Shown one piece after another: positions 3,651 to 37,349 of a stretch of DNA of 64,000 bases. The DNA is taken from positions 21,118-85,117 of the IMG/VR virus record IMGVR_UViG_3300010365_001171; one strand, given 5' to 3'. Position 1 is the stretch's first letter. The number at the start of each line of letters is the position of its first letter. Source of the DNA: a virus (Duplodnaviria > Caudoviricetes). Position numbers and translations under genes: made by a program. Under the pieces are notes generated by a model. That model was not told where the DNA came from and did no database searches. It worked only from the letters and a program-made list of their open reading frames with translations.

Positions 3651-4467
3651 TTTAAAGGACTTTAAATTAGGTTTTGACCCAGAGTTTTTATTATTAGATA
3701 CAAATCTAAACAGACATGTATCTGGATTAACTTATAACTTTGGGGATAAGAGTAATGGACGAGAAATTTGTCCAGACTGTACGGTTGAAAATGACATGGT
3801 AACACTAGAAATAGTGTTACCACCAGTCAATATCGAAGATGGCTTAGACAAATGTTGGGAAAACTTTTCCACCGTAAAAGATTTACTACAAAAAGAATTA
3901 CCTGAAAATATCGTAATTGATTGTTGTAGTTATGCCGAATTTACCAAAGAAGAATTAGCCACGGAGAAAGCAAGTACAGGAGGATGTTCGATAGATTTTA
4001 ATGCATGGAATAATGGAGAACCAAATAAATCTCCAAAGTTTAAAACTCCTTACAGATCATCAGGGGCCCATATACATTTTGGAATGCCTACTCTTACCTA
4101 TAAGCAAATGGTTCAAATAGTAAAGTTAACAGATCTTTTTATTACGTTACCTTTAATTTTTAATCAAAGTAATATAGAGAGAAGAAAACTTTATGGGGCA
4201 GCTGGGGCCTTTAGATGTGTAGAAGGACGAGTTGAAGCAAGATCTCCTTCTAACTGTTACTGGTCTTCAAAAGAGGGGCTAGAATGGGTGTTTAATCAAG
4301 CTAAAATTATTCTTGGTTTAGTTGACACTGAAATCATGGAAACCGTTGAGTACTACAAAGAAAAAATTATTGAGGCAATAAACTTTGATAATTTAGAGTT
4401 AGCGACAGAGTTAATGGAAATATTTAATATTAAATACGCCCCATTACCTGTTTTAGAAACAACATAA
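3622..4467 (+). CDS. phiEco32-like COOH-NH2 ligase type 2
   Basis: LGFDPEFLL start, GCSIDFNAW, RSSGAHIHFG, RRKLYGAAGAFR and VEARSPSN motifs; amidoligase/GATase neighbourhood. Confidence 0.85.
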   Translation: MVVKLKNNLNLKDFKLGFDPEFLLLDTNLNRHVSGLTYNFGDKSNGREICPDCTVENDMVTLEIVLPPVNIEDGLDKCWENFSTVKDLLQKELPENIVIDCCSYAEFTKEELATEKASTGGCSIDFNAWNNGEPNKSPKFKTPYRSSGAHIHFGMPTLTYKQMVQIVKLTDLFITLPLIFNQSNIERRKLYGAAGAFRCVEGRVEARSPSNCYWSSKEGLEWVFNQAKIILGLVDTEIMETVEYYKEKIIEAINFDNLELATELMEIFNIKYAPLPVLETT

Positions 4468-4521
4468 AATAAACAGAGTTTATAATTTAATGTAAACTCT
4501 GTTTATTTTCTTTTATTTTTT
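4466..4521 (+). terminator. Intrinsic terminator after the ligase cluster
   Basis: 17-bp perfect inverted repeat AAAATAAACAGAGTTTA (4466-4482) / TAAACTCTGTTTATTTT (4493-4509), 10-nt loop, followed by a T-rich run. Confidence 0.7.
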
Positions 4522-4531
4522 ATAAAAAAAG

Positions 4532-4563
4532 TTTGTTTTTGATCTAATTAATACGTATATTAT
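4532..4563 (+). promoter_or_regulatory. Putative promoter TTTG-N20-TATATTAT, possibly leaderless
   Basis: TTTG 4532-4535, TATATTAT 4556-4563, then AGT and the ATG at 4567; directly downstream of a terminator. Confidence 0.6.
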
Positions 4564-4566
4564 AGT

Positions 4567-4953
4567 ATGGATTTTATCAAAATAAATGGCAATGTGCCCT
4601 CATCAAAAAATAGCAGAATTTTTAATTATAAATTAAAAAAATCTTTCCATTCTAAAACTACTCAAAAATTTGTAAAAAGTTCTGAGAGCGAATTCATAGA
4701 ACAAAAAGAAAAGTTTTTATCCTTAATAAAAAATAAAAGTAAACCTTTTAAAATAGGGCTACATTTTATTAGGGATTCAAAAAGAAAATGGGACTTTATA
4801 AATATGTGTCAAATTATTTTTGACTTAATGGTAAAAAATAATTGGATAGATGATGATAATACCAATGAAATAGTTCCATTTCCTGTAGAAATTGACAACG
4901 AATACTATACAGTAGATAAAAATTTAGCGGGGGTTTTAATAACTATATTATGA
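4567..4953 (+). CDS. RusA-like Holliday junction resolvase / endonuclease
   Basis: GNVPSSKNSR N-terminus and RKWDFINMCQIIFDLMVKNNWIDDDN, matching the RusA-type D-x-x-N...D...DD pattern. Confidence 0.7.
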   Translation: MDFIKINGNVPSSKNSRIFNYKLKKSFHSKTTQKFVKSSESEFIEQKEKFLSLIKNKSKPFKIGLHFIRDSKRKWDFINMCQIIFDLMVKNNWIDDDNTNEIVPFPVEIDNEYYTVDKNLAGVLITIL

Positions 4954-22300: not shown

Positions 22301-23929
22301 AGAAGACAATTCTTCTGCGATGGCTAATTCTTTCCCTGTTTTTTCCTTACCTGTATAAGCATCATATTTACTATAAAGATTAGCTTTTTTTAATTGTAAT
22401 CTTTTATAATCTTTCCAATCTTCTACAGTTAAATTTAACTGGTTTTTATGCATATGATCAAAAAGTGTAATTTCTGCATTTACTTCATCTAAAGCTTCTC
22501 TTGATTCTAATGAGATATTATCAAAAACTTTATAAAATTCTTCGTTTCCAGGAAGTTCTAAATTCTCTCTCTCCCAAGATTTTAAATTCTTGAATAACTC
22601 ATTAACTGTCTTCATTTCTTCAGCGGTTTCAGCTGTTTTCCTAGCTTCAGAATAAGCTCTTTTTAATCTTTTATGCGCATTTAAAAATTCCCAATTAAAA
22701 GTTGTCATTAAAGCAAGTCTTTTTTCAACAACTTCTTCACCATTTTCATCAAAACTTAAAATATTTACCCATTGATATAAATCTTTATAAGATTCTTTTA
22801 AATTATTTTTATTTCCACCATTTAACGTAAATAATCTTTGCTGAAAAGTATCCAAAGTATCCTGTATAAGAATACCTTGTTTTCTTATGTTTCTCTGATG
22901 TGTATTTAATATTTTTTGCATAGCAGAAACAATAGGATCACCAGACATTCCAGCAGATTCTAAATAGGCACTTAAAATACCTACATCACCCCCTTTACCA
23001 AGTAAAATTTGCTTTATAAGATCCTTGGTAATTCTTTTATTATTTAAGGCCTTTAATTCTTTGGTATACTTATCTATCAACTTCTCATTTTGCTGCTCCT
23101 TAGCACGCTTTAAACGGGTGATAACCCTGCCTTTACGGGCCTCTAACTCAGGATGAGAACCTTCAAGACTATCTTTCATAGCTTCTAATCTTTTTATTTC
23201 CGAAACATCGCCTAATTTATTAGCTTCTACTAATTGTTCATTTATATCAGACAATTGAGATAAAATATTCACATTATTTCCTGAAATATCCATATTCTTA
23301 AACACATCATATAATGTATTAACAACATGATCAAAAGATTTATTATTATACTGAGCTTTAATAAAGCTAAGATTTCTTTCTAATTTAGTTAAAGCAACAT
23401 ATACATCATTAGTATCAGGTATATCATTTAAAATAAAATAGTTTTTTAATTCTCCTACTACATCTAAATATGCTACAGCAAAGTTATTAGCATCAAACAA
23501 CTGATTATAAATTTCAATTGGATTATCTTTATACTTATCCATAGTTTCTATAAAATGCTTCTTAATAGCCTCAGAAGTTACTATACCAGACTGTAAAAAA
23601 GCTACAATAGACTGCGCTTGTTTTAAAGTTTCATCTGTAGTTCCTTTATTCAAAGAGCTAAGTCTTGAAGAGGCCTCTTTAAGTTCTGGAAACTTATGTC
23701 TAAGGGCATTAAACCACTCTAAACTATAAGAGGCATTTAAAAAAATTTTTATATTTTCAAATGCTTTTACAAGACCAGAATCCTTTAATGAATCTAAAGA
23801 GTTAACTAAGTCATTTATATTTTTATTTAATTTTTTTTCTTGTAAAAAATCAAACATGGCATCTTCTGATGCAAACTCAAATAATCTACCTGACCCTTCG
23901 TCAGTAAATGTATATTTACAACTACTCAT
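19349..23929 (-). CDS. Large virion cargo/ejection protein (1526 aa), helical, with a C-terminal hydrophobic segment
   Basis: Last gene of the giant-ORF array that contains the virion RNAP. Hydrophobic helix AAAEILMILCIYIISSALTALA; LHGNYS...MFFRKF region resembles LPD38-like polyvalent protein C-termini (recalled, not searched). Confidence 0.7.
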   Translation of the reverse strand: MSSCKYTFTDEGSGRLFEFASEDAMFDFLQEKKLNKNINDLVNSLDSLKDSGLVKAFENIKIFLNASYSLEWFNALRHKFPELKEASSRLSSLNKGTTDETLKQAQSIVAFLQSGIVTSEAIKKHFIETMDKYKDNPIEIYNQLFDANNFAVAYLDVVGELKNYFILNDIPDTNDVYVALTKLERNLSFIKAQYNNKSFDHVVNTLYDVFKNMDISGNNVNILSQLSDINEQLVEANKLGDVSEIKRLEAMKDSLEGSHPELEARKGRVITRLKRAKEQQNEKLIDKYTKELKALNNKRITKDLIKQILLGKGGDVGILSAYLESAGMSGDPIVSAMQKILNTHQRNIRKQGILIQDTLDTFQQRLFTLNGGNKNNLKESYKDLYQWVNILSFDENGEEVVEKRLALMTTFNWEFLNAHKRLKRAYSEARKTAETAEEMKTVNELFKNLKSWERENLELPGNEEFYKVFDNISLESREALDEVNAEITLFDHMHKNQLNLTVEDWKDYKRLQLKKANLYSKYDAYTGKEKTGKELAIAEELSSYREKVNGLFNDNVDNLEGAAKWEKNRSVFESILSQRLSDGLINEEDYKFQLSVWHQKNSLASYTDSFIEERTRIYNRLAELSSKKAARVEQLRLDLATLRGSRQAKDDQNQIIGDLYTEAQAAKIKEIQEELETLRLDDGEVSTNEKVLFNKIIQKYGLPAYWVDRIGIDDAQLKGEMTPEDFENFKRIDLKIQNSSANGNKKEIFELIKELDKLQETVNTTYYEEVSANKKFEVEQSTVRNTGETDEEFNKKVEENFKNSSWYLDNHYNKTVWDDRSKGYKVVSKPITIWTVTRPKKQEDIINTPNYKYSKTREIKDSYKNDKSVYDETLKSYLPKESKWKNSNASTNPEVKKLLGELTEYYLNSQKTTTIQNRLGYFLGGKEQELNEALLNSGSIKEKGQKIWSYTKNRFKFAASDKDNGYGLAELSGEPFQFVPVKYNNKLTEEDQSLDVFGNITGYLYDVAQSNEIQKSLPTFKSISKILNENTPESAKQNSLVRGLTLTSQKFVKGDTNYRAQQVEALILTQIYKEYKKRGENRVFSKFVDNVNGFAAFTSLSYNIPSAVVNWVSARIQITIESMSDEFFNYKTWKIGEAAYLNYAKDFMKDFTKSGNKSFISKLVALFDPITGEYSESIEEGFKRTALREIVQNSPANYLRHLGEHEVQISTMLGMLKTRIVTYKGKTTNLLAAYEENFKVTGLMEFAEGDVSYVLNDGGTFSKTMEYTQDSEVNLINKIQSINEGLHGNYSKLNQAMVERYSVGRMAFFFRKFFVPLFAKRFSGLRANIMRDTYTEGFYITFYNSVIKELFNVVTGKERLTNPKNWWTSQTPLQKANLKRAAAEILMILCIYIISSALTALADGDGDGEPDKDANFFLLHAIYLAKRARSETEQFMPVLGANEISKTLTTPSVAYSMHYRNTSNLVKHTIGLLTGEENAYLKQGKGFFDPDAPKVLGDLLKIIGISGNTFHPHELIKGFDYAQRNL

Positions 23930-23933
23930 ATTT

Positions 23934-24344
23934 TTAACAATTATTTATTATGCTTCCGTTATCATTTAATTTACTGATATAATCTGGATTATCAAAACTT
24001 TTTTCAATATTTATTTTTTCTTTTTTTGATTCTTGGCTATTTTCTATATTTTTTAAGGTAGCTACAAGATTATCAGAAAAGGCTTCAAAATCACTAGAAT
24101 TTTCAAATTCTATTTGTTTATCATAAACATATTCTATTGCTTTTTGCAATCCTTTATCTATTGTAATGATACTTGAAACACCATTAACAGTTTCAACCTT
24201 GACTACATTAATATTATTCCAAGTACTGTTTAAATCTTTCATTACATTACGAGCAGCTACCGGGGAATTTCCCCAGTAGTCCTCAGTAATAAGTTTATTT
24301 ATAACACCCTTAATAGTTGTTTCTATATTTAATTTACAAGCCAT
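23934..24344 (-). CDS. Small cargo-array protein (136 aa) with Cys at both termini
   Basis: MACKLNIET...GSIINNC; tightly packed between neighbours. Confidence 0.7.
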   Translation of the reverse strand: MACKLNIETTIKGVINKLITEDYWGNSPVAARNVMKDLNSTWNNINVVKVETVNGVSSIITIDKGLQKAIEYVYDKQIEFENSSDFEAFSDNLVATLKNIENSQESKKEKINIEKSFDNPDYISKLNDNGSIINNC

Positions 24345-24345
24345 T

Positions 24346-25173
24346 TTAACAATCTTTTTGTGTAGTTACGGAAGAATTTATAATTTTTTGGAGTATTTGA
24401 GGATCTGAAATTGTAACCTTTCCAAAATTAGTTTTACCTGTTCCAATAATAGTATTATCAGGTAAAATAAAATACTTAGAATTATTATAAGTACTTTCTC
24501 TAAGGGTACCTTCTAAAAAGGATAAGTTAGCCTTAATTTTATTAAGAATAGTTTCATTTGTGACCTCTTTACCATTGGCAGTAAAATATTTACCATCTGT
24601 ACCGATATTATAAACAGCTCCTGATACTGTTATACTGGTCATATCAGCAGACTTTACTTTAGTTGTTTGAATAACAGCAGGTAATTCTTGAGAAGCATCG
24701 TTTGTTTTTTCTACTGCTAACCGTTCAAATTTAATAACTTTTACAAGACCTTCACCAGCAGCAGCTACTTCTATACGTTCTTTTTTAGCTTGAGCTGCAT
24801 GTTCTTGGTTATTTTCTAATTGAAGGTATTTCTCAAATTCGTCACTATTTTGAAATAATTCATTAATATTTACATCTGAAACTTCAGTAACTTTAATTTG
24901 TAGCATATTTGAGTTTCTAAAATTATTTTCTTTAATAATTAAAGTATCCCCTACACTTATTGGTCTATTTACCTCCAAAGTTAATTGTTTTTTCTGACCC
25001 TCTAAAATTCTATAATACTCTCCAGGAATAGTAGAAACATAAGAATTCATGTATTCAAAAGTAGAATCCAACTCTTCAACAATTTTTTCAAATTGAACTT
25101 GTGTACCAGATACACCAACAATATTCAAATAAGAACTTTTAACTTCTTTTTGTGTAAAATCATAAATTAACAT
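24346..25173 (-). CDS. Cargo-array protein (275 aa) with an ASCH-like domain and a C-terminal Cys
   Basis: ILEGQKKQLT..VGD..IKVTEV..VIKFE ASCH-like pattern; ends TTQKDC. Confidence 0.65.
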   Translation of the reverse strand: MLIYDFTQKEVKSSYLNIVGVSGTQVQFEKIVEELDSTFEYMNSYVSTIPGEYYRILEGQKKQLTLEVNRPISVGDTLIIKENNFRNSNMLQIKVTEVSDVNINELFQNSDEFEKYLQLENNQEHAAQAKKERIEVAAAGEGLVKVIKFERLAVEKTNDASQELPAVIQTTKVKSADMTSITVSGAVYNIGTDGKYFTANGKEVTNETILNKIKANLSFLEGTLRESTYNNSKYFILPDNTIIGTGKTNFGKVTISDPQILQKIINSSVTTQKDC

Positions 25174-28100
25174 ACTCTTTTTTTGCCATAACAGTTAACA
25201 TATCATGGTTATTTAAATTTTTACCTAAATCTACAAGAGCTGTAATTCTAAATTTATTAAAAGAATGCCCAAAGAAAACAACATCACCAACTCTATAACT
25301 TTTGTCCTCAATTTTTAAAGTGTCAATTGTTTTATCCCCTTCTTTTACTTGTGTAATAGTTACAGGAAGTGTTAAAGCAGTTTTTTTACCTTCTATAAAT
25401 AATTGTTCATTACTTAAAACCCTCGTTTTTACATTATAATAACTAACAGCGCTAGGACTAACAGCTTCAACATTTTGCCAAGCAGATAATTTAGCAGCGT
25501 TTTTAATATTAGTAAAACCATAAAAAGAAAATGTTCCAGTTGCGGGTGTTAAAGTACCTACAGTATCCCCTCCTAGTAAATCACTAGAAAAGTTAGGGTC
25601 TATTTCTATAAACGCGTTCTTCTTAGATACAATAGTAGGGGATAGTCTAAACAGTCCATTAGAAATCCTTAACTTATATTCTTTAAAATTACCAGTCCCT
25701 TTAGCAGAAATTTCTTTAAATATCCCACCATTATTTTGTCTAAATAAAGCAGGAAAATGGTCTAAAAATCCTTTAAAGAGATTTGTACCAGATTGTGTCT
25801 GAGTTATTTGGCTGATAAAGCTATCTATAAGGGGTCTTACAACATTTCTAAACTCTTCACTAGGTATAAGTTCATTAAAAGTTGTACCTGTTTTAGATAT
25901 ACCATTCTCTACCAAATTAGTATAAATTAAATCTTTAAAAAATGTTCTAACATCATCTGCAAATTTTTCATCGGGATGCGTAAATTCCAGTAAATCACTA
26001 AATTGTTTTTCATACGCATTTGCTAACCTACCTGTTATTCTATCACCTTCATACGTAATACTAACAATATTAGAGTTTTTAGATTCTTTTTTAGAAAATA
26101 AATTTATAAATCTAGTTTCTTTAGCATTTGGCATTACTTCTTCAAATCTATTTTGAAGATTATTTAATCTTGTTCCAATATTATTTTCACCTGATAACAT
26201 TTTGGCATATTTGGTAAAAATATTATTTACAAATTTACCTTCAACTATTAAACCATTTTGAACAATAAAAGATATTAATTGATTATAAAAAAGCTTTTCC
26301 ACTTTTTCAACGGACTTAGCACCATAAATACCTGCTTTAGTTAAATCTAATTTAATTTTAGCAAGTGTATCTAAAACCAAAGGATTAGAGGACAATGGAA
26401 ATAACGGTGTAAATAACTCTTTTAATAAATCAAAATTTTCAAATGCCCTTATTGGAGTTTCATTTTTAATTCTATTATAAACAACACTAGGAAAAATATT
26501 GTCTGTTTTACTATACTTAGTAACCTTTTGAGATTTATCTATCAATGACATAATATTTGAAGTCTTTCCAGTATCAAAATTTAATGTGCCGGTAACATCT
26601 CTCAACAAACCACTTTGAAATAATAACTCATCTAATTGAGCTAAATATATTAATTGTCTTTTACTAGAAGGGGAATTTTTATCAAAATTTAATGGCATAA
26701 TTAAATCATCAGCCAAAGATTTTGAAATTCTTTCATAAGAAGAATTAGCATATTTTACATAATTAGATAAAAAATCGTTCTTAATACCTTTAAATCCTTT
26801 ATTAGAATCAGAGTACTTTTCTACTAGTGAGTCTTGAACAAAGCTTTTAAAATTACCAGATAATTCCTCATTTCTAGATCTTGAAAATGCAATTTTTAAA
26901 AATTTAGATTCTTTCATATTCAACATCTTAACGTAATCACGTATAATTGGTTGATTCATAAAGTTAGCTACATCAATAGGTGAAGTTCCCATTTGTAACA
27001 TATGAAATATTACAGGGGCCATCATTTTACCTGCATTCATATAAAATATAAAGGGTTCTTTTGCTATATCCACATACGCATTTATAAATTGTGAAAATAA
27101 CTCTGATTTTTTAATATCGTCTAAAGTATAACTATGTGAATAATCAATATGTTCAACACCGTCAACAATTACTTTACGATGAGGTAAAAAATACATTACC
27201 TCACGTTTATCTACAAAATTAGATAAATAAGCACCAGAACTTTGGTACAATTGAGTAAATGTGTTTGCTAAGGCAGCTATACCTAAAGTATCTTTACCTC
27301 CTAAAAATGCATTAAACTGCTCTAATATATTTAAAGCATCTAATACTAATGTAGGAGATTTAGATAAATTAAATTCTCCTGTTCTGGCACCAACAGCAGC
27401 TTTAATCTTATCTGCTATTTGATCTTTGATAATATTAGTTGAGTTAGGAGTAACCATACCTTCAAAAGATTCTGGCATTAAAAGACTTTTAACAGCAACG
27501 TCTAACAATCTATTAGAAAAAACAGTTTTTATACCATTTTTATCAAACGTTTTAGTTAAGATAAATGGTTTACTTCCTTCTTCTATTCCACCACTTATTT
27601 TGTACTGAAAAATATTTAATTTATCCACATCAAAATCTGATCCAGCACTAACAACAATTTCTGATGGTACAATAATAGTACTTGCCATAGAAGGATCTAA
27701 GAACTCTACTACTTGCATAACTTCAATTGAATTAAGCCCCTGTGTAGGAATCCTATAACCAACCATAGTTAAGAATTTTTTATTCTTTTCTACCCACTTA
27801 CCCTCTTTAGAATTTTCATCTAATCGAGCAGCCATCAATATAGCATTAAGGTCTTTTATAGACTCTGCTAATGTTTCCCTTTTAAAATTCTTACCTTCAA
27901 ATTCTAATGCTAATAAAGCCATATGTTTATTAGGGTCAAAAGAAATTTTTACTTGCATAGCAAGAGTTTCTCCTGTATTAGGGTCTATTCTATAAAAAGC
28001 TAAATCTTTACTATAACCTTTATTTTTAAATCTTTCTTTTACATATGTTTTTTCAAAACCAGTTACAGAAGCTTGTACTAAAGCGTCACCATAAACCTTT

Positions 28101-31100
28101 TGATTTACAAGACGGTTGTTTATAATACTAAATAAAATCTTTTCAACGATTAGTTTATTTTTAGCTCCTTCTAAATCACTAACAGAAAGCTCTACTTCAT
28201 CTTTGCTACCTTTTTTAGTAATAGTTTTAAACGTATCTAATACAGAATTAGGTAAATCTCGCCTTTGAATTTCTTGTTTAATTAAATCTCTTAAATTAGA
28301 CCAATTTGTTATAGTAGATTTTTCATTGATTTGCTTAATTCCTAATTCTTTAATTAAACCATCTTTTTCATGATTTACCATGTCCTGTAAAAGGGTATTA
28401 TACTCATGATATAACTTAAATATTGGAGAAAGTTTTATTTTTTCATCCAAAGTTAGGTTAAACCAGTTATCATCTTTTACATCTACTGGTACACCCCCAT
28501 TAAACTTATCTTGAAAAAGTAGTTTTCTATACTGAGTACCAAAAGTATTTTCAGTCTTCATTTTAGGGGCTATTTTAACCTGATTTTTCATAAACTTCCA
28601 AAAAATAGTTTGGGTAGTTAATTCTTTATCATTAAAATCACCATCTTCACCATAAAAATCATTTATTTGTCCATTTTCATCAGTAAGCGTTTCTATTTTA
28701 GAGCCAGACGCAAATGTAGCATAACCAACCCTCTGTCTTAACATTCTATTATTTAATTTTTCGTAAGGTGTACCAGCTATTACAGATGGTATTAAAGGTA
28801 CAATAGCGTATTTATGTAAAGCTGGAACAAATAACCCTAAGCTATTCTTAATTCCACCAGTATATTGATCTTTTCTTACAGGAAATAGAGCTATTTCTTC
28901 ATTAGATAATGCTTCTCCTGTAATAATTTTTACAAAGGCGTTTTCTTGCTTTTCTGACCAACTCTCAGTTCTTAAAGAATCTACTCGATACCACTCTAAA
29001 GTACAAACAGCAGTAGCATCAGGTTCTTCATAACCTTCATGACCTTCTTCAAGTGCTTTACCCCTATAAAGTTCTAATACATCTAATTTATCTACGTATT
29101 CTTCAGCAGTCTCTTCAGAAAATCCCTCTTTTAATTTTTGGTTTTTTATACCAGCTCTAATAGTTTCATAAAATTGAGATACATTTCTAACATCCTTAAA
29201 TACAGCTACCTTAAACTCATTTGAAATTTGAAAATCAGCTTCATCTAATAAGTCATTTTCATACATGTAATTTCTTGACTGCAAAAGAGTATTAGGATTA
29301 TTACGCAAGAAACGTAACATCTCATCATCTGTTCTAGCCATTGTACCAGTAGCAGAAAAACCAGAAAAGCGTTTAAATGGATCTTTATAAAAAGCTAAAT
29401 CACCATATAATACTCTCATATTTTCTGCATTCAAAATAAAAGAAATAGTAGAATAAGCATGCGCTATTTCTTTTATAGTTAAAGATTTTCCGTCTCTGTA
29501 TTTAATACTTCCAAATAATCCTGAAATTCCTTCAACCATTTTACCATCATCCCCCTCATAGGCTAACAAAGATAGTCCACCATCTAAAAGTGCTTTTTCC
29601 ATAGCCACTGCTGTACCATTTTTGCCTAAAAAGTAAGTTGTTATAGAATCTTTAATTCTTTCTCCTTTAGGGCCTAATATGTACTCTTTTGCTAATAAAA
29701 CAGCGTGGTCTGGGGAAGAGGCAGAATCTATTAAACTTTGTAGATCTGCTTTCACTCCATTAGATAATAAAGCGTCGAAAATTACAAAAGTTGTTGCTTT
29801 TTTATCATAAATTTTAGAATTTAATTTAGTAGTTTTAGCAATTTTAATACGTTTAATTTCTGAAAGGAGAAGATCACGCATAAAAGTTCCTCCTGCAATA
29901 TGTGAACTATTTATATTTCTTAAACTAATCACTGACGCTTCTTCAAGTGATATAGGAGTATTTAATTTTTTACCTGAATTATCTTTACCCCAACTAGACA
30001 TTTTATAAGCATAAGCAGAAGATTTATCCCCAGTTCTAATGTTTTCTTGTACTCCTATAGAAAGTGCATTAAGAATATCCATAGAAAGTTTATCAAAAGC
30101 GGCTAGTTTAGTAGTGACTTGTCCCTTTTCATTCAAATTTTCTGAAGCTACCTTTAAAATATCTAAGCCATTATAACTAATTAAACTATATGTAACATTT
30201 TTACCGTTCTCTTTATTTCTTTCCCAAATACCTTCTGTATTTTTAGTAAATAATCTATTAATAACTAAACTACCTAATAACATTGGATTGGCATCCGGAT
30301 TTAAATGGTTATACTCAGGTAATGCAAAGATTTCATTTAAAGTTTCATACTCTGGATTATTTAAAGTATTAGACAATAGAGTCATATAGTTATTTAACTG
30401 GTGCTCATACTCTGGCTTATCTGCTGCATTATAAATAGACGGCTCAAAAAATGTAGAAGAGTATTTTAATTCAATTTCCCCTAATCTTTTTAAATCTTTT
30501 TTTCTACCAATAATAGCCTGTCCTTTTAAATCTTTAAATGATGAGTACTCAAGCATATCTCCTATTACATTATTAATAGGATTATTATTGCTTATCATAG
30601 TAGTTATCCATCTATGTATATCATGTATAATGTCAAAGTTACCCTCTGACTGATAATTTTTTAATATTAAATCAAATTCTCCACTTTTTACTGCGTCTTC
30701 ACTCAAATCTATACCTAAAGCCTTTAAAAATTCAACCCTTTTTGCCTTAATCTCATTAATTACAGGTTTAAAGGTAGGCTTTGAAAACATTTCATCTGTT
30801 ATTTCTATAGAATAAAATGGAAAATCAGCCAAAAAATCTTTAAATAAAAACTTAACCCCATTTACACCTTTAAAGGCATACGGAGAATCTTCAAAGTTAG
30901 TTTTCCAACTATCGAACAAACGCTCTTCTGATTTATTATTTGCTCTTTTTAACGAAATTGATCCTTTTTTAGAATCATATAAGGACACTTCTCTTGGAAC
31001 TAAGGTATTACTAAAAGTATGATAAAAATCACTTCTTTTAATAGTTGCCTGTAAAGTTAATTTTGAAGGGTTTTTACCTCCCAAATAATGAATAACAGTA

Positions 31101-33196
31101 AGAAGGCTAGGATTATCAGTAGATAAACTTTGTAATTTATCAATCATTACATTAATATCTGTAAGACCTGCTAAATTATTTAACATTACTTTCCACAATT
31201 GTATAGTATCGGCTTTATCCATAAAACCAAAAGAATTCAATTGGATAACATGCTTATCACCAGACGGAGTTACCTTTGGAATATTTTCAAGCAAACTTCT
31301 TAGTGCTATTGAAGCATCTGCATAAGAATCATTTTCGTTAGTATTTTCAAAACTATTACGAACTTTTTCTAATTCTTCTACTATTTCTTCGCCAGCATCA
31401 TTTACATTATCTTCATCCTCTTCGCTCTTTTCTATATTTTTTATGTTACGCTCTTCTAAATATTCAGACATGAGTACTTGATAGTTAGAGACTTCTCCAT
31501 TATCAGTCTGTACTTTATTGTTTAATATACTATTATACACCTTGTGTGCAAGACCCCATTTATCAAGCTTCTCTCCAAATATAGTATAGTAATTACTTAA
31601 ATCTTTATAAATTTTAGGAAAAACTTTACTATTAAATATTTTTACGGCCTCTTTGTCATTTAAATCAACATTATTTGCCATAGCATACTCAGTATACTTT
31701 ATATCAATATGGTCAAATAAACTATTTACAATTTTATCACTGTCTTGACCTAAATCATCAAATAAATAAGCGCTTCTATTTAAAGCCCCAAAAAATGAAC
31801 TTGAAGATTTAGTATAAGAATTTAAATTACCATTTTTTAAATCTGCATAAGCTTTTTCAATAGTAATATCTCCAAATAATTTATTTAAAAAAGCCTTAAT
31901 TTTTTCAAACAATGATTTGTTTTCTTTAATTAAAGAACTTTTACCCGTCTGCATAAAACCTCTAAAATCCTCTGCTATAAACTCTTCTAAAAATAAAGAT
32001 TTATCATGGTCATTTAAACTATTATAAATATCTCTATCTTTTTTATTTAATTTTCCTAAAGCTTCATTATAGAGACGATTTATTTGAGTGTCTAATAAAT
32101 ACATTTGGGAAAACTCGTGCCATGCCTCATGATATAGCGTACCAGAGGCCGCGTTAGCGTAAAGAGTAACACCTGCCCTAGTCCAAGTTCCAAATACATT
32201 ACTATTAATAGTAGCAGAAATGTTAAGTCTTGTCCCATTTAAATTAAGTCTTGAATTAAACCAATTTATTTCTTCAGTAGAAACATTTGTATTATTTTCA
32301 GCAATAGCAGTCCTATTTAATGTTAAACTTTTTAAATCCCTAGATTCTTCTAAAGTTAGTTCATTCCAAGTGTTACCAAATTCATCAGTAATAACTTTTA
32401 CATTCTCTTTACCATAAGTTTTATTAAGAATATTAGTTACAGTATTTTCATAGAAGTTATAAATAGGTTTTAAAGCACCAAATCCTTCAGTTTCTACTCT
32501 TTCAAGTTCTTGTTTAAGTTGAGTTATTTCTGTATTAACTCTTTCTTGGTCAGATTTAATTTTAGATACTGTTAAAATATTAGATTGTGTAGAATTTTCA
32601 TTAGCATATTTTTGAGCTTCTTCCTCATTAGTAAATTCTTTATCATTTTCTCCAAAAACATCAAACATATCTCTTACTAACCAAGTATTATCTAATCTAA
32701 ATTTTTGATTTTCAAGTTCTTTAATTCTACCTTCTGTCTGTTTCTTAAATTCTTCTAAAGTAGTATGTCCTTCAACTTTACTAGCAGTATTACCACTAGG
32801 AAATAACACTTTTTCATATCCTTTCTTAGCACTATCTTGTATAATAGATTTAACAAAGAATGTTACCCAGTTATTATCTTTTTGAAGTAATTTAGTAAAA
32901 GCATCTGCATTATCTAAATATGTATCTAAAAATGTTTCCCAAGTTTTAGTATATTCATTTGCATTTATCTCAGTACCGTTCTTATAATAATGCCAGACAT
33001 TTTTATCATCTTTTTTTGCAGTATATTTATTATTTTCAAATTCAAAATTATTTCTCCATTTCTGAAATAAATCAGATTGAACCTCCATCACTCTCCTAAC
33101 TTTTTGGATAGAAAGAAATTGAGGATTGATTACTTGATTTATAAATTCTTCTTTAGAATTATAAGTTGTTCCTTTATATGTGTATTTACAAGCCAT
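25160..33196 (-). CDS. Virion-packaged DNA-dependent RNA polymerase (crAss-like, phi14:2 gp66 type) with a zincin domain
   Basis: GYRIPTQGLNS and AGSDFDVDKL catalytic loop (DFDVD at 27623-27637); HEAWH zincin motif at 32117-32131; 2678-aa single chain; C-terminal ASCH-like segment. Confidence 0.9.
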   Translation of the reverse strand: MACKYTYKGTTYNSKEEFINQVINPQFLSIQKVRRVMEVQSDLFQKWRNNFEFENNKYTAKKDDKNVWHYYKNGTEINANEYTKTWETFLDTYLDNADAFTKLLQKDNNWVTFFVKSIIQDSAKKGYEKVLFPSGNTASKVEGHTTLEEFKKQTEGRIKELENQKFRLDNTWLVRDMFDVFGENDKEFTNEEEAQKYANENSTQSNILTVSKIKSDQERVNTEITQLKQELERVETEGFGALKPIYNFYENTVTNILNKTYGKENVKVITDEFGNTWNELTLEESRDLKSLTLNRTAIAENNTNVSTEEINWFNSRLNLNGTRLNISATINSNVFGTWTRAGVTLYANAASGTLYHEAWHEFSQMYLLDTQINRLYNEALGKLNKKDRDIYNSLNDHDKSLFLEEFIAEDFRGFMQTGKSSLIKENKSLFEKIKAFLNKLFGDITIEKAYADLKNGNLNSYTKSSSSFFGALNRSAYLFDDLGQDSDKIVNSLFDHIDIKYTEYAMANNVDLNDKEAVKIFNSKVFPKIYKDLSNYYTIFGEKLDKWGLAHKVYNSILNNKVQTDNGEVSNYQVLMSEYLEERNIKNIEKSEEDEDNVNDAGEEIVEELEKVRNSFENTNENDSYADASIALRSLLENIPKVTPSGDKHVIQLNSFGFMDKADTIQLWKVMLNNLAGLTDINVMIDKLQSLSTDNPSLLTVIHYLGGKNPSKLTLQATIKRSDFYHTFSNTLVPREVSLYDSKKGSISLKRANNKSEERLFDSWKTNFEDSPYAFKGVNGVKFLFKDFLADFPFYSIEITDEMFSKPTFKPVINEIKAKRVEFLKALGIDLSEDAVKSGEFDLILKNYQSEGNFDIIHDIHRWITTMISNNNPINNVIGDMLEYSSFKDLKGQAIIGRKKDLKRLGEIELKYSSTFFEPSIYNAADKPEYEHQLNNYMTLLSNTLNNPEYETLNEIFALPEYNHLNPDANPMLLGSLVINRLFTKNTEGIWERNKENGKNVTYSLISYNGLDILKVASENLNEKGQVTTKLAAFDKLSMDILNALSIGVQENIRTGDKSSAYAYKMSSWGKDNSGKKLNTPISLEEASVISLRNINSSHIAGGTFMRDLLLSEIKRIKIAKTTKLNSKIYDKKATTFVIFDALLSNGVKADLQSLIDSASSPDHAVLLAKEYILGPKGERIKDSITTYFLGKNGTAVAMEKALLDGGLSLLAYEGDDGKMVEGISGLFGSIKYRDGKSLTIKEIAHAYSTISFILNAENMRVLYGDLAFYKDPFKRFSGFSATGTMARTDDEMLRFLRNNPNTLLQSRNYMYENDLLDEADFQISNEFKVAVFKDVRNVSQFYETIRAGIKNQKLKEGFSEETAEEYVDKLDVLELYRGKALEEGHEGYEEPDATAVCTLEWYRVDSLRTESWSEKQENAFVKIITGEALSNEEIALFPVRKDQYTGGIKNSLGLFVPALHKYAIVPLIPSVIAGTPYEKLNNRMLRQRVGYATFASGSKIETLTDENGQINDFYGEDGDFNDKELTTQTIFWKFMKNQVKIAPKMKTENTFGTQYRKLLFQDKFNGGVPVDVKDDNWFNLTLDEKIKLSPIFKLYHEYNTLLQDMVNHEKDGLIKELGIKQINEKSTITNWSNLRDLIKQEIQRRDLPNSVLDTFKTITKKGSKDEVELSVSDLEGAKNKLIVEKILFSIINNRLVNQKVYGDALVQASVTGFEKTYVKERFKNKGYSKDLAFYRIDPNTGETLAMQVKISFDPNKHMALLALEFEGKNFKRETLAESIKDLNAILMAARLDENSKEGKWVEKNKKFLTMVGYRIPTQGLNSIEVMQVVEFLDPSMASTIIVPSEIVVSAGSDFDVDKLNIFQYKISGGIEEGSKPFILTKTFDKNGIKTVFSNRLLDVAVKSLLMPESFEGMVTPNSTNIIKDQIADKIKAAVGARTGEFNLSKSPTLVLDALNILEQFNAFLGGKDTLGIAALANTFTQLYQSSGAYLSNFVDKREVMYFLPHRKVIVDGVEHIDYSHSYTLDDIKKSELFSQFINAYVDIAKEPFIFYMNAGKMMAPVIFHMLQMGTSPIDVANFMNQPIIRDYVKMLNMKESKFLKIAFSRSRNEELSGNFKSFVQDSLVEKYSDSNKGFKGIKNDFLSNYVKYANSSYERISKSLADDLIMPLNFDKNSPSSKRQLIYLAQLDELLFQSGLLRDVTGTLNFDTGKTSNIMSLIDKSQKVTKYSKTDNIFPSVVYNRIKNETPIRAFENFDLLKELFTPLFPLSSNPLVLDTLAKIKLDLTKAGIYGAKSVEKVEKLFYNQLISFIVQNGLIVEGKFVNNIFTKYAKMLSGENNIGTRLNNLQNRFEEVMPNAKETRFINLFSKKESKNSNIVSITYEGDRITGRLANAYEKQFSDLLEFTHPDEKFADDVRTFFKDLIYTNLVENGISKTGTTFNELIPSEEFRNVVRPLIDSFISQITQTQSGTNLFKGFLDHFPALFRQNNGGIFKEISAKGTGNFKEYKLRISNGLFRLSPTIVSKKNAFIEIDPNFSSDLLGGDTVGTLTPATGTFSFYGFTNIKNAAKLSAWQNVEAVSPSAVSYYNVKTRVLSNEQLFIEGKKTALTLPVTITQVKEGDKTIDTLKIEDKSYRVGDVVFFGHSFNKFRITALVDLGKNLNNHDMLTVMAKKEYVNL

Positions 33197-33199
33197 AAT

Positions 33200-33874
33200 T
33201 TACTTCTTTTTTGTTAATGAAGGATTTTTAAAATTTAGAACAGTAGTATTTTCTAACAAATTAAAATATTCTTTCCAGGTTTGATTAGATACAAATCTCA
33301 AAATACTTCTATAATTAAAATCATATTCTTTACAAATTTGTTTAATTGTTTTAATATTACTTTCTTTATTTGCAATATCTACAAATTTTAAAATCTGTTC
33401 TGAATTTACTTTATCTCCAATTCTATTACCTTTAATTTGGTTTACTATTTTAGATACTTTTTCTTTAGTTTCTTTAGAATGAGTTTTACCTAATTTCAAT
33501 TGTCTTTGTGCTTCTTTTTGTTCAGGAGTTCTAATTTTGCCTTTTAGAGATTCAGAAAGATTTTGTTTATGTTCTGATGTAAAAATTCTGTTTAAATTTG
33601 AACCTGCTGTTGGGCAAATATTATATTTAGGTAACAATGTATCTATATAATGTTGTTCTCTAACAAGTAAATTTTCTTTTTCACATTCTTCAATTAAAGT
33701 TATTAAAAAAGAATCTTCTTTATATTTATTAAATGCTCTTTGAAGTTTAATTGAGTAATGTTTATTTTGTCTTAATAAACATAAGTGAGAACCTTTTCTA
33801 ACATTGAAATTAGAACAAGAACCTATATACAAGTTTCCATTTATAGTATTTTCTATTTTATAAATTCCTACCAT
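33200..33874 (-). CDS. Free-standing GIY-YIG homing endonuclease with NUMOD3-like repeats
   Basis: MVGIYKIENTINGNLYIGS..R..SH; FTSEHKQNLSES and HSKETKEKVS repeats. The ATG at 33874 is preferred over the GTG at 33883 in the ORF track. Confidence 0.88.
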   Translation of the reverse strand: MVGIYKIENTINGNLYIGSCSNFNVRKGSHLCLLRQNKHYSIKLQRAFNKYKEDSFLITLIEECEKENLLVREQHYIDTLLPKYNICPTAGSNLNRIFTSEHKQNLSESLKGKIRTPEQKEAQRQLKLGKTHSKETKEKVSKIVNQIKGNRIGDKVNSEQILKFVDIANKESNIKTIKQICKEYDFNYRSILRFVSNQTWKEYFNLLENTTVLNFKNPSLTKKK

Positions 33875-33875
33875 C

Positions 33876-36800
33876 TTATCCACAATTAACTTCTAATATA
33901 CCACTTTTTTTCATAATTTCTATCAAATTATCAATATCTTTTTCTTGATAATTTTGTTTTTCATCTGCTCTCATCCAACCAATTGTATTATCTGTTTTAA
34001 ACTGGGCGTGAGATTGTATAGAAGGAACTATCATAGGAGTTTCAATGTTAGCTTCTATATAACTTCCATTAGTACCACCTGGAACTGTTAAGTTAAAATA
34101 ATGTTGAGTATTTTCAGTAGTTTGTTCTCTTGCTTTTAAATATTCTTCTTTTGTTATTTCTTGTGGTTCTGTAAATGTATCAGGTTCCCACATTTGAAAG
34201 TTTTGAGAGTCTGTAATATCAGATACTTCAAAAATTTGAAGTCCATTTGAACTATATCCTCTTCTATAATATTTATTATTTAATACAAAACCATCAGTAG
34301 TATTATCTTTATCTAGTTGTTTTTTAGCGGTATTAATCTCAACACTATAACTATAATTGGAAGCTAATTCTAAAACTATTTGTTCTCTTAAATCAGATTG
34401 TTGAGATTGTAAAATATACTCTTTAAATCCTTCTATATCTTGTTTAGAACCCAATATATGAATTTGTTCGGGTTCAAATACTACAAAAACATCCCCTCTA
34501 GTATCAAAGTCAATAGTATTTCTTCTAATTGTAGTATTATTATTTTCTTTAATATTTAAAATAGCTGGTATAATTCTAGTACCTACCCTATCTGCAATTT
34601 TATATGAACCAAAATAAAAACCCTTAGCCATGTCGTCACTTCTTAGGCCCTGACCTTTACCTATAAAAGATTTATCAAAATTATCAAATTTAGGTTTTTC
34701 TCTCCCAGAATTATCGAAACCTCTTGTACCATGATAAACAATATCTTTTACTTTACTACCAGGAAATATAGTATCTAAATATTGAGAATATTGCTCTGAT
34801 GTACCTATATTAGCTAATTCAGGATTAGATTCAAATAATTCTGGTACACCTTTTGTAGGCTCTGTATTAGAAATTATTTTTTCTCTATCAGTAATATCTA
34901 AATCTAAAAGTAATTGTTTTTGAGCACTAGGTATTTGAAGTTCAGTTAAAATTTTATTTAAATCCCAACCATTCTTTTTACCTTTTTCAAATACTTGTTT
35001 AGCCTTATCAGAAGATAAAATATCTACAGCTTTTAAATTATAATCTACTTTACTTAAATTTAAAGAACTAGACTCTATAACAGAATTAGCTTGATTATTA
35101 ATTTTTCTATTTTCAACTTTGTTAAGTAAAACATTTATATCAGAATTTGTAATTTTAAGAGTTATGCCTAAAGATTTTAAAACCTCTTTTATAAAAGCCA
35201 CTATTTTATTATACATAGTAGGGTTAGTAGTAGGAGTCTCTGCTAATTTAGCTATGTACTCTTGTCCAACTTGGCTTATTTCTGCTTTACTAAGAGATTT
35301 GATTTCTTTCCCATAATATAATTGACTAATTTTCTCTATAGCAGCTCTTTGTTGGCCGGAAGATTTTGTAACTAAGTCAGAAGCAAAAGTATCTAATTTA
35401 TCACCTAAATAATTTATAACGCCTGCGTGACCTAATGTTTCATGTCTATAAGTTTCTTCAGCCTCTCCCATTGTAGTTAGGTTAGACTGTATTAAGTACA
35501 CTTTTCCGGAAGCTTTATGATATAGACCTTTAACCTCACCTTCAGCCCCCATATTTTTAATAGCTTCTTGGATATCTAAAGGAAGTTCTGTTTCATATTT
35601 GACAATAACAGCATCAGGATACCGTTCCTGAAGCTTTTTAACACTCGTACCTCTAGTATCTTTTGTTACAGATGCTGTTTTACCTTTTTTAGATAAATCA
35701 ACTGAAAATGGAGTATCCTCATCATTGTCTAAACTATCAGCTTCATTTGCTTCAGTACTAATTTCTGTAGGATTTAATTCGTTAGAACCAGTTTTTATAG
35801 AATCCTCTTTTATGTTTAAACCGTCTGTGGAAAGAAGGTTTAACTGATCCTTTAAATATTTAAATAATTTTGGTGCTTTTTGTTCAAGCATTGCTTTACC
35901 TGTACCAATACCATCAGCAGGTATTACAATTGTTTTACCACTATCTTTAGCTTGTTGAATAGCTTCATCTACTTGTTGTTTAAATTGATTAAAATCTGCA
36001 TCAGTAAAGTAAGAAGAGTTATTAAATGTAGCTATTTTATACTCTATTTGCCAAGCTTTATTTAACTTAGGTTTTACTTTAGAATTAAAATAATCAACAG
36101 ACCACCCTTCTAAAGAACTCCATTGTTCAGGGGTTTTACCACTACCTACTAATTTATGTAAAGGTTTAGTAACTTCAACTAATACTTTTTTATTATTTTG
36201 CCCTTCCCACTCTATTACATCTCCTACCCTTAAATTTTTCCAATATTCAATATGGCCATCAGATTCATATCTTGTAGTAGCAGTCCTCTCACCTTTTTCA
36301 ATAGCTTCTAAAGTAGTATTAGCTATAACATCATTTCTCTTATTATCACCATAAGAAAAAGACATCTTACCTTTAGCAGAGGGTTTAGCTATATTACCTT
36401 CATTAGTCTTCCTATTCTTTTTAGTATCAATACCAATAGCATTAGGTAAACCTCTGATAACAGCTTGTGTAGATGAAGGTACGTATCCTATAGTTCTATC
36501 TGATGTATTATCACCAAATAAAAATACCTTATCAGTTTGCTTGGCTACATCAGCTCTAGTCCAAAAGCCATTAAAAAATTCTACTTTATTTAAACTAGGG
36601 TTTTGTGGAATTTCTAATTGCTCTCCCCTTTTATCAGAAGAATTTACTACCTCTTTAGTAGTATTAATATCTACAGTGCCTGCTACTGTTGTTTTGACAT
36701 CAAACTGGCCTTTATACACTAATAAAAGATCTAAAAATCTTTCTACAGTCCAATCCCCTTCTTTTAAATCAGTTGATTCTAATTTAGGTTTTAAAAGCAT

Positions 36801-37349
36801 GTCTACCCCTGACTTAAACTTAGTTACAGTTTTTCTAAAAGAATCTTCAACACCACTAAGAATTTTACCTGTTTTAGGGTCAAGTCTTTTATTACCCGCC
36901 AATTCAATTGCATTAGCGACTTTCTGTAAATTAAAATTTGTACCAGTAAGACCTTCTAAAGACTTTTCTAAGACTTCCTTATACAAAATACCATCAAGAT
37001 TTGCTAACAGCTTATTAAAAACTGTTGGGTTCTCTTTTTCGATTAATTGTAGAAAAGGCAGAGAAAAATGTTTTAATAACGTACTATTAGATACTACTTT
37101 TCCCTTATTAATGTATACGGTACCTTCGTTGTTAATAACACTTATTTGGTTAGTTAACAAATCATTTACAATACTGTTTACTTTATATGTTTTTGATTTT
37201 TCGAATGATTTAATAAAATCTTCCGAGGAACCCTTCATATCTGTATCAGAGGATTCATTTTGTATAAATTGAGCAACTGATACATACCCATACTTAGCAA
37301 TTGCCTTTGCGGCTTTTATTAACGTCTCTGACGTTAGACATACACTCAT
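33876..37349 (-). CDS. Polyvalent cargo protein (1157 aa): macro-like domain with ASCH insert, zincin metallopeptidase, ART-like domain
   Basis: VFLFGDN..GIGTG macro-like halves flank an ASCH-type GERTATTR..VGD segment; HETLGH at 35427-35444; IVYHGT..GFYFG..VVFEPEQIHILG; ends EVNCG. Confidence 0.75.
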   Translation of the reverse strand: MSVCLTSETLIKAAKAIAKYGYVSVAQFIQNESSDTDMKGSSEDFIKSFEKSKTYKVNSIVNDLLTNQISVINNEGTVYINKGKVVSNSTLLKHFSLPFLQLIEKENPTVFNKLLANLDGILYKEVLEKSLEGLTGTNFNLQKVANAIELAGNKRLDPKTGKILSGVEDSFRKTVTKFKSGVDMLLKPKLESTDLKEGDWTVERFLDLLLVYKGQFDVKTTVAGTVDINTTKEVVNSSDKRGEQLEIPQNPSLNKVEFFNGFWTRADVAKQTDKVFLFGDNTSDRTIGYVPSSTQAVIRGLPNAIGIDTKKNRKTNEGNIAKPSAKGKMSFSYGDNKRNDVIANTTLEAIEKGERTATTRYESDGHIEYWKNLRVGDVIEWEGQNNKKVLVEVTKPLHKLVGSGKTPEQWSSLEGWSVDYFNSKVKPKLNKAWQIEYKIATFNNSSYFTDADFNQFKQQVDEAIQQAKDSGKTIVIPADGIGTGKAMLEQKAPKLFKYLKDQLNLLSTDGLNIKEDSIKTGSNELNPTEISTEANEADSLDNDEDTPFSVDLSKKGKTASVTKDTRGTSVKKLQERYPDAVIVKYETELPLDIQEAIKNMGAEGEVKGLYHKASGKVYLIQSNLTTMGEAEETYRHETLGHAGVINYLGDKLDTFASDLVTKSSGQQRAAIEKISQLYYGKEIKSLSKAEISQVGQEYIAKLAETPTTNPTMYNKIVAFIKEVLKSLGITLKITNSDINVLLNKVENRKINNQANSVIESSSLNLSKVDYNLKAVDILSSDKAKQVFEKGKKNGWDLNKILTELQIPSAQKQLLLDLDITDREKIISNTEPTKGVPELFESNPELANIGTSEQYSQYLDTIFPGSKVKDIVYHGTRGFDNSGREKPKFDNFDKSFIGKGQGLRSDDMAKGFYFGSYKIADRVGTRIIPAILNIKENNNTTIRRNTIDFDTRGDVFVVFEPEQIHILGSKQDIEGFKEYILQSQQSDLREQIVLELASNYSYSVEINTAKKQLDKDNTTDGFVLNNKYYRRGYSSNGLQIFEVSDITDSQNFQMWEPDTFTEPQEITKEEYLKAREQTTENTQHYFNLTVPGGTNGSYIEANIETPMIVPSIQSHAQFKTDNTIGWMRADEKQNYQEKDIDNLIEIMKKSGILEVNCG

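Follow-up and report, generated by a model that had tools for sequence, protein, structure and literature searches.

We analyzed a 64,000-nucleotide (nt) stretch of a virus of the class Caudoviricetes (IMG/VR record IMGVR_UViG_3300010365_001171, positions 21,118 to 85,117; hereafter the window) and found that a conserved domain of its giant proteins is divided between two neighboring minus-strand genes, with a homing endonuclease gene lying between them. The evidence is computational throughout. We consider it probable that this domain was fractured by an endonuclease unit, that its halves reassemble as proteins by means of two short docking peptides at the break (a C-terminal tail and an N-terminal head), and that the unit spreads by homing. 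In this account, a domain of ~415 amino acids (aa) found in giant virion-module proteins of this phage group would have been broken at its first variable loop by a unit consisting of a docking tail, a stop codon, a free-standing GIY-YIG gene, a start codon, and a docking head. The halves, which would be translated as the end of a 1157-aa protein (P0001) and the start of a 2678-aa protein, probably rejoin at the protein level, with no RNA or protein splicing. The tail (a helix and the strand ..ILEVNC) is predicted to lie antiparallel to the head (the strand CKYTYK, a turn, a strand, and a helix), and the flanking domain strands MRADEK and VRRVM are predicted to pair beside the tail–head strands. 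Spread of the unit is probably driven by homing of the endonuclease, with co-conversion of flanking sequence, as suggested by the mosaic DNA identity described below.

One domain encoded by two genes

The C-terminus of P0001 reads ...YFNLTVPGGTNGSYIE..SHAQFKTDNTIGWMRADEK, then QNYQEKDIDNLIEIMKKSGILEVNCG and a stop codon, with ..NLTVPGGTNGSYIEANIETPMIVPSIQSHAQFKTDNTIGWMRADEK immediately preceding the tail; the 2678-aa protein begins with MACKYTYKGTTYNSKEEFINQVINPQFLSIQK, followed by VRRVMEVQSDLFQK...NNWVTFFVKSIIQDSAKKGYEKVLFP...FYEN. These domain blocks, together with the tail and head (class 1 among the junction peptides of this phage), had been quoted in an earlier interpretation made without database searches (the sequence-only reading), and a check on the open reading frames (ORFs) recovered all of them on the minus strand where it had placed them (Table 1). 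That reading made no mention of the 224-aa GIY-YIG ORF, which occupies the whole interval between the ORFs of P0001 and the 2678-aa protein and leaves spacers of 1 nt (TAA g ATG) and 3 nt (TAA att ATG). This ORF matched the Pfam families GIY-YIG (36.5 bits; cutoff, 22.6 bits) and NUMOD3 (24 bits; cutoff, 20.4 bits), as well as homing endonuclease families of PHROG (E-values down to 2e-28, PHROG 314), and the gene is likely the cause of the domain split.

Residues 30-260 of the 2678-aa protein matched 694 metagenomic proteins. When the best 120 of these were scanned with both halves, 100 contained both in one polypeptide, the P0001-type half lying directly upstream of the E.QSD half at a distance of 20-90 aa. 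A scan of IMG/VR with the N-half motif yielded 80 loci, with both motifs in a single ORF in 67 and the domain broken after the N-half in six. The sequence-only reading had taken the two blocks for halves of one contiguous domain and had suggested looking for continuous homologs; both collections bear it out. The unit comprises residues ~980-1131 of P0001 and ~33-295 of the 2678-aa protein (~415 aa) and contains three conserved blocks: NLTVPGGTNYTENEI.TP.I.PSIKGHAQF.TD.GIGWFRSD, KTRRILEVQSDLFQKGR, and NQFLQLLNKDNNWVTFFVKSIIQDSAKKGYEKVLFP.G.TASKVEGH. All invariant residues of the family are retained in both halves of the window copy. The linker between GWFRSD and KTRR, which forms the first variable loop of the domain, is 22-91 aa long in most homologs and variable, with no conserved sequence, and the break in the window falls inside it. 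In the closest relatives (P0005-P0008, 60–73% identity; L008; L022), the domain is contiguous. Elsewhere, a P-loop kinase (AAA_33 / Zeta_toxin) sits between head and C-half (L006, positions 4001-4600; P0130; P0142), indicating that this loop takes whole inserted domains too.

The domain family is known here from metagenomes alone; tblastn of both halves against 50,697 GenBank phage records gave no match. Pfam found nothing in the 2678-aa protein and no family over the split domain in the window proteins, and a scan of 51 contiguous homologs (E ≤ 0.1) returned no consistent family. Likewise, no curated LPD or polyvalent-protein Pfam model fell over the domain in the window proteins or did so consistently in the 51 contiguous homologs. 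Neighboring parts of some homologs bear ART-PolyVal, MuF_C, Zeta_toxin, or PDDEXK. A phmmer search of the 2678-aa protein against Protein Data Bank (PDB) sequences returned no match, and Foldseek of a contiguous-domain model (predicted local distance difference test score [pLDDT] of 66) found nothing in the PDB at E ≤ 0.001. With VIA-align in its wide mode, matches of the same model were confined to a long helical hairpin (~285-385; Z 8–10), and its likeness to SMC and ESCRT proteins was rejected as a generic coiled-coil resemblance.

Docking tail and head as an inserted pair

The tail is 26 aa long and Cys-ended, and the head is 32 aa long and starts with MAC..., making 58 aa together. Profiles of tail and head built from split loci were run on 162 distinct contiguous loops and on ten shuffles of each loop. 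The tail profile reached 6 bits in none of the 162 loops, and the head profile did so in 1.9% of the loops vs 0.5% of the shuffles, and no loop attained 12 bits. Tail and head were thus inserted and did not arise by reshaping of the loop, which upholds the proposal of the sequence-only reading that a docking pair was inserted in the middle of the domain. Head-like stretches (Y.Y.NG..Y..EE) had been seen by eye in some contiguous loops; compared with shuffled loops in the profile test, they found no support.

The tail is conserved in other split loci. For the head, a profile of 17 sequences was searched against 1.84 billion representative proteins (E ≤ 0.001) and matched 102 cluster representatives. 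In 99 of these the match began at residue 1, and the remaining three were repeat proteins with 9–14 partial matches. The head is thus a strictly N-terminal module, and no fused internal tail–head unit was seen in any protein of this search. Sub-families of the head track particular downstream sequences, that is, particular insertion sites. Between close pairs, synonymous and non-synonymous changes in the head stood at 7:1, 5:2, 4:1, 3:0, and 10:6; those in the tail were fewer and mixed (e.g., 3:0 and 1:0, but 3:8 in another pair). Judged from these substitutions, tail and head appear to be translated, and the heads appear to be under protein-level selection.

Recurrence of the tail, endonuclease, and head layout

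Ten head-bearing homologs were looked up on their contigs (L001-L007 and L093-L095), and a GIY-YIG gene lay directly upstream of the MAC.. gene in all ten; in all seven checked for it (L001-L007), the gene before the GIY-YIG gene ended in a Cys tail. The six IMG/VR loci broken after the N-half all showed the tail and a MAC head with a GIY-YIG ORF between them, and among the loci examined none had the domain split without this module. A second insertion site lies just after ..QSDLFQKGR (L007, L085, L015, L018, L051, and L061), the coding stretch RRILEVQSDLFQKGR being located between the two insertion loops of the domain. A third, unrelated site adjoins an ELF..NPELAN motif (L003a and L095). Because tail/head pairs turn up at different loops and also at an unrelated site, each time together with an endonuclease gene, they must have been moved there. 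At two loci, the domain is spread over three genes (L093, 2643-4768; L094, 1966-3493), and the middle protein (136 or 127 aa), encoded between two GIY-YIG genes, is made up of the RR..E.QSDLFQKGR block with a head before it and a tail after it.

In eight loci (L001, L003, L004, L005, L056, L007, L061, and L051), the 35–45 nt after the tail stop contain TTTG .. TAnnTTTG before the endonuclease start. This is a look-alike of the Bacteroidota -33/-7 promoter and apparently came with the endonuclease gene. The spacer carrying it is missing in the window, in L006, and in L054-L058.

Predicted assembly of the halves

A complex was predicted from residues 980-1157 of P0001 (alignment A3) and residues 1-296 of the 2678-aa protein (alignment A4). 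The interface score (interaction prediction score from aligned errors, ipSAE) was 0.75, 0.77, and 0.75, and the best of three controls scored 0.00. Of 80 solved complexes, 58 reach the mark applied to this score, as do 2 of 110 mismatched pairs; these counts are approximate for the custom alignments used here. The runs shared at least 73% of contacts, with a partner pLDDT of at least 79, and recall of a known complex by the predictor seems unlikely because no solved relative was found. The contacts of lowest predicted error joined R1127-K1131 with V33-M37, the strands flanking the loop; those of next-lowest error joined L1152-V1154 with Y5-Y7, pairing the tail strand with the head strand in antiparallel orientation. 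This prediction, which the sequence-only reading had called for, supports its expectation that the halves co-fold with the tail docking on the head.

Extending the tail–head register in the model would place Cys1156 opposite Cys3, so that a disulfide staple is conceivable, though we lean slightly against assuming one. Positions 4 and 1156 are the only Cys residues of P0001, and 106 of the 120 homologous giant proteins have a Cys within their first five residues, against an overall Cys frequency of 0.05%; the possible disulfide fits this census.

Signs of mobility

DNA identity across the split locus is mosaic. Window positions 34109-33116 form a single 994-nt block with 90% identity to L006 (blastn), which spans the N-half core, the tail, the entire endonuclease gene, and 27 head codons; beyond the head, L006 continues into its P-loop kinase insert. 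The endonucleases of the two loci are also 90% identical in amino acid sequence. The C-half at 33085-32705, by comparison, has 92% DNA identity to the contiguous allele L022. The stretch from N-half to head thus resembles L006 and the C-half resembles a contiguous allele; this mosaic is consistent with endonuclease-linked spread and fits the pattern expected from homing with co-conversion of one flank. The head DNA is, in addition, 88–92% identical to that of L004, L005, and L007, whose endonucleases share 34–51% amino acid identity with that of the window. In a domain tree built without the tail and head columns, the split state is scattered and requires five changes on the best tree, and the window copy groups with the contiguous L008 and L022.

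Alternative explanations

Several observations weigh against fracture by a mobile unit followed by reassembly through its peptides. The single-chain model of a contiguous homolog (m49ff6c4e4b30) was of moderate quality (pLDDT 66), with the conserved N-half core below 50, and the P0001 chain in the predicted complex reached a pLDDT of only 61–63. The well-supported branches of the domain tree force only two or more changes of split state (at least 2). Disulfide formation would be confined to the virion, being improbable in the cytoplasm. In the fragmented ribonucleotide reductase NrdA of phage Aeh1, the tails were not required for mutual binding of the two fragments (PMC3045599), so the domain's own strands may suffice here. 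Tails and heads of the same class also occur at junctions without an endonuclease (window 23929-23934, L060, and L068), and Cys tails and heads of other classes join most neighboring proteins in these phages; the pair could serve generally to link the chain and be a target of endonucleases instead of their cargo.

Taken further, the Cys tails and heads would be a general head-to-tail linkage of virion cargo proteins, the GIY-YIG genes would home into junction DNA without carrying the peptides, and the cohesion of the domain halves would come mostly from their own interface. We regard this as unlikely. It would account for the endonuclease-free class-1-like junctions, for the finding that nearly every giant-ORF junction in 90 loci joins a protein with a Cys close to its C-terminus to one beginning with M-x(1-3)-C, in cognate classes, and for the distinct endonuclease subtypes beside near-identical head DNA, which are expected if head DNA is the target. 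However, homologous tail/head pairs interrupt a domain that is contiguous elsewhere, at two of its loops, and recur at a third unrelated site, in each case accompanied by the endonuclease gene; no endonuclease-free split of the domain was found among the loci examined, and the block shared with L006 crosses tail, endonuclease gene, and head in one piece. Carrying the peptides and targeting their DNA may both be true of the endonuclease.

If the split had inactivated the domain, the halves would be decaying remnants and the peptides would have no role in assembly; the domain indeed has no fold or family match. Yet every invariant residue is kept in both halves, the split recurs in many lineages, the heads are rich in synonymous changes, binding is predicted, and the three-piece versions retain a tiny middle protein with both head and tail, and we consider decay very improbable. 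We give still less credence to tail and head acting as the halves of a minute split intein, or of some other ligation system, in which a peptide bond would join the two proteins and the peptides would be removed. The gene layout does match that of the split-intein "fractured genes" (PMC2677866), and the tails often end in Asn-Cys, recalling a C-terminal intein junction, with Cys at both ends. Against this, 26 plus 32 aa is far below the size of a HINT domain and gave no HINT or intein Pfam match, there is no conserved Cys, Ser, or Thr at the tail start and no His-Asn at the head end, the residue before the tail Cys varies (N, K, D, P, or Q), and the cysteines lie at the domain-distal ends, the wrong place for splicing. 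The sequence-only reading had likened the docking module to a split intein that reconstitutes the domain in trans: reconstitution agrees with the split domain, the inserted pair, and the predicted co-fold, whereas the intein-like chemistry finds no support in a 58-aa pair with no boundary nucleophile. Least credible of all is an interruption removed at the RNA level (group I intron) or during translation (ribosomal bypass) to give one continuous protein. Many GIY-YIG genes reside in group I introns, but tail and head appear to be translated, and the heads, apparently under protein-level selection, always stand at residue 1 of the called proteins. The intron reading was dropped because an Rfam scan of 32500-34500 (E up to 1) matched no family and the ORFs, separated by just 1 and 3 nt, leave an intron no space outside them.

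Comparison with known systems

For fracture and reassembly as proposed here, the tail-mediated assembly of the mobE-split NrdA in Aeh1 is a closer precedent than a split intein. In that phage, ribonucleotide reductase is fragmented (nrdA-a / mobE / nrdA-b) and assembled by tails (Crona et al. 2011, PMC3045599). In both cases relatives have the gene in one piece, and a free-standing homing endonuclease gene interrupts it between adjacent beta-strands; the broken ends bear C- and N-terminal tails that intact homologs lack and that were presumably acquired with the endonuclease. Function in Aeh1 is restored with no RNA or protein splicing, and the tail/head assembly predicted here would likewise need none. 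The systems differ in the endonuclease, mobE being similar to HNH-family endonucleases and the gene here being GIY-YIG. The tails of Aeh1 are unique sequences thought to act by charge, whereas those described here belong to one conserved family, with 102 cluster representatives of the head, and recur at three or more insertion sites. The predicted strand–strand fit, the Cys at each free end, and the endonuclease-free occurrences are also unlike the Aeh1 account. Crona et al. proposed tail assembly as a general neutralizer of fragmentation and expected case-specific tails that escape similarity searches; reassembly of fragments by short peptides has been shown once, in Aeh1 (PMC3045599).

In "fractured genes," split inteins flank a free-standing endonuclease gene (Dassa et al. 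2009, PMC2677866). As here, the endonuclease gene stands free between two halves of a conserved gene, and some of those cassettes bring their own control elements, to which the promoter look-alikes (L001, L003, L004, L005, and others) may be compared. Unlike the fractured genes, the present locus has no intein halves, trans-splicing is not expected, and the product would stay as two polypeptides; moreover, fractured genes lie in DNA-metabolism enzymes, whereas the host gene here encodes a virion-module domain. The split topoisomerase of T4 (gp39 / mobA / gp60) and other seg/mob insertions likewise place a free-standing endonuclease between gene pieces with tail-like extensions, for which an assembly role has only been speculated (PMC3045599, PMC2988022). 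The present locus is laid out like both Aeh1 and the fractured genes and follows the splicing-free logic of Aeh1, and it differs from them in its conserved, portable tails with paired terminal Cys. We know of no conserved portable tail family for T4-type seg/mob insertions.

Other features of the locus

Table 1. Coordinates of the split domain, the docking peptides, and associated features in the window.
Feature	Position	Strand	Basis or remark
P0001 (1157 aa)	33876-37349	minus	ORF; abuts endonuclease ORF
2678-aa protein	25160-33196	minus	ORF; further ORFs downstream
N-half of conserved domain (P0001 residues ~980-1131; core NLTVPGGTN..SHAQF..GWMRADEK)	33957..34412	minus	In contiguous homologs, its counterpart immediately precedes the E.QSD half
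C-terminal docking tail QNYQEKDIDNLIEIMKKSGILEVNCG (P0001 residues 1132-1157)	33879..33956	minus	Absent from contiguous loops; kept in other split loci
Stop codon of P0001	33876-33878	minus	
Free-standing GIY-YIG + NUMOD3 homing endonuclease gene (224 aa from ATG at 33874)	33200..33874	minus	Pfam, PHROG
N-terminal docking head MACKYTYKGTTYNSKEEFINQVINPQFLSIQK (residues 1-32 of 2678-aa protein)	33101..33196	minus	Head profile matches
C-half of conserved domain (residues 33-~295 of 2678-aa protein; VRRVMEVQSDLFQK .. NNWVTFFVKSIIQDSAKKGYEKVLFP .. FYEN)	32312..33100	minus	Homologs; DNA match to L022
Class-1 docking junction without endonuclease (136-aa protein ending ..DNGSIINNC / 1526-aa protein starting MSSCKYTFTDEG..)	23834..23990	minus	

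The giant ORFs follow one another in a chain. In the window (19349-44773) and in loci L001-L092, almost every giant-ORF junction has a Cys in the last 1–5 residues upstream and M-x(1-3)-C at the next start. Cognate junction classes include ..KILKSIC / MA(N/T)CPNKNLEEWK, ..EEDPFKC(S) / M(V/S)C(E/Q)VKVNSIK, and ..AIWQ.KNC / MSYCININHPEY. Internal Cys is nearly absent from the giant ORFs, at ~0.3 per ~2400-aa protein. The near-identical protein P0004 (2950 aa) corresponds to the 2678-aa protein fused to the following 275-aa ORF (window 25160-25193 / 24346-25173), implying that the window copy is shifted or slips at the overlap. The sequence-only reading called the 2678-aa protein an RNA polymerase, for which the sole trace seen is AGSDFDVDK at residues 1851-1859 (window 27620-27646), which we take to resemble the metal-binding motif of two-barrel RNA polymerases. 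The only match to vRNAP_dom, a weak one (E 0.005, below cutoff), falls in P0001 residues 476-527, adjoining DUF7831.

Implications

Selfish endonuclease genes spare their host gene by residing in self-splicing introns or inteins. We raise, as a tentative and rather doubtful suggestion, that the unit described here belongs to a distinct class of mobile element with its own protein-level repair kit, namely portable cognate docking peptides whose terminal Cys residues would form a disulfide in the virion. If this were true, such an element could break essential genes at many sites, and even one domain into three, without splicing, and it would be a third solution in function beside introns and inteins. 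The peptides are a recognizable, reusable family (about a hundred protein clusters and several insertion sites), which makes the idea of reassembly testable at scale. If confirmed, the pair would also be a natural, very small (26 + 32 aa) heterodimerizing tag for split-protein engineering, possibly locked by a disulfide. Finally, the finding bears on how the giant virion-module proteins of these phages, which are predicted to be packaged and ejected, stay in order.

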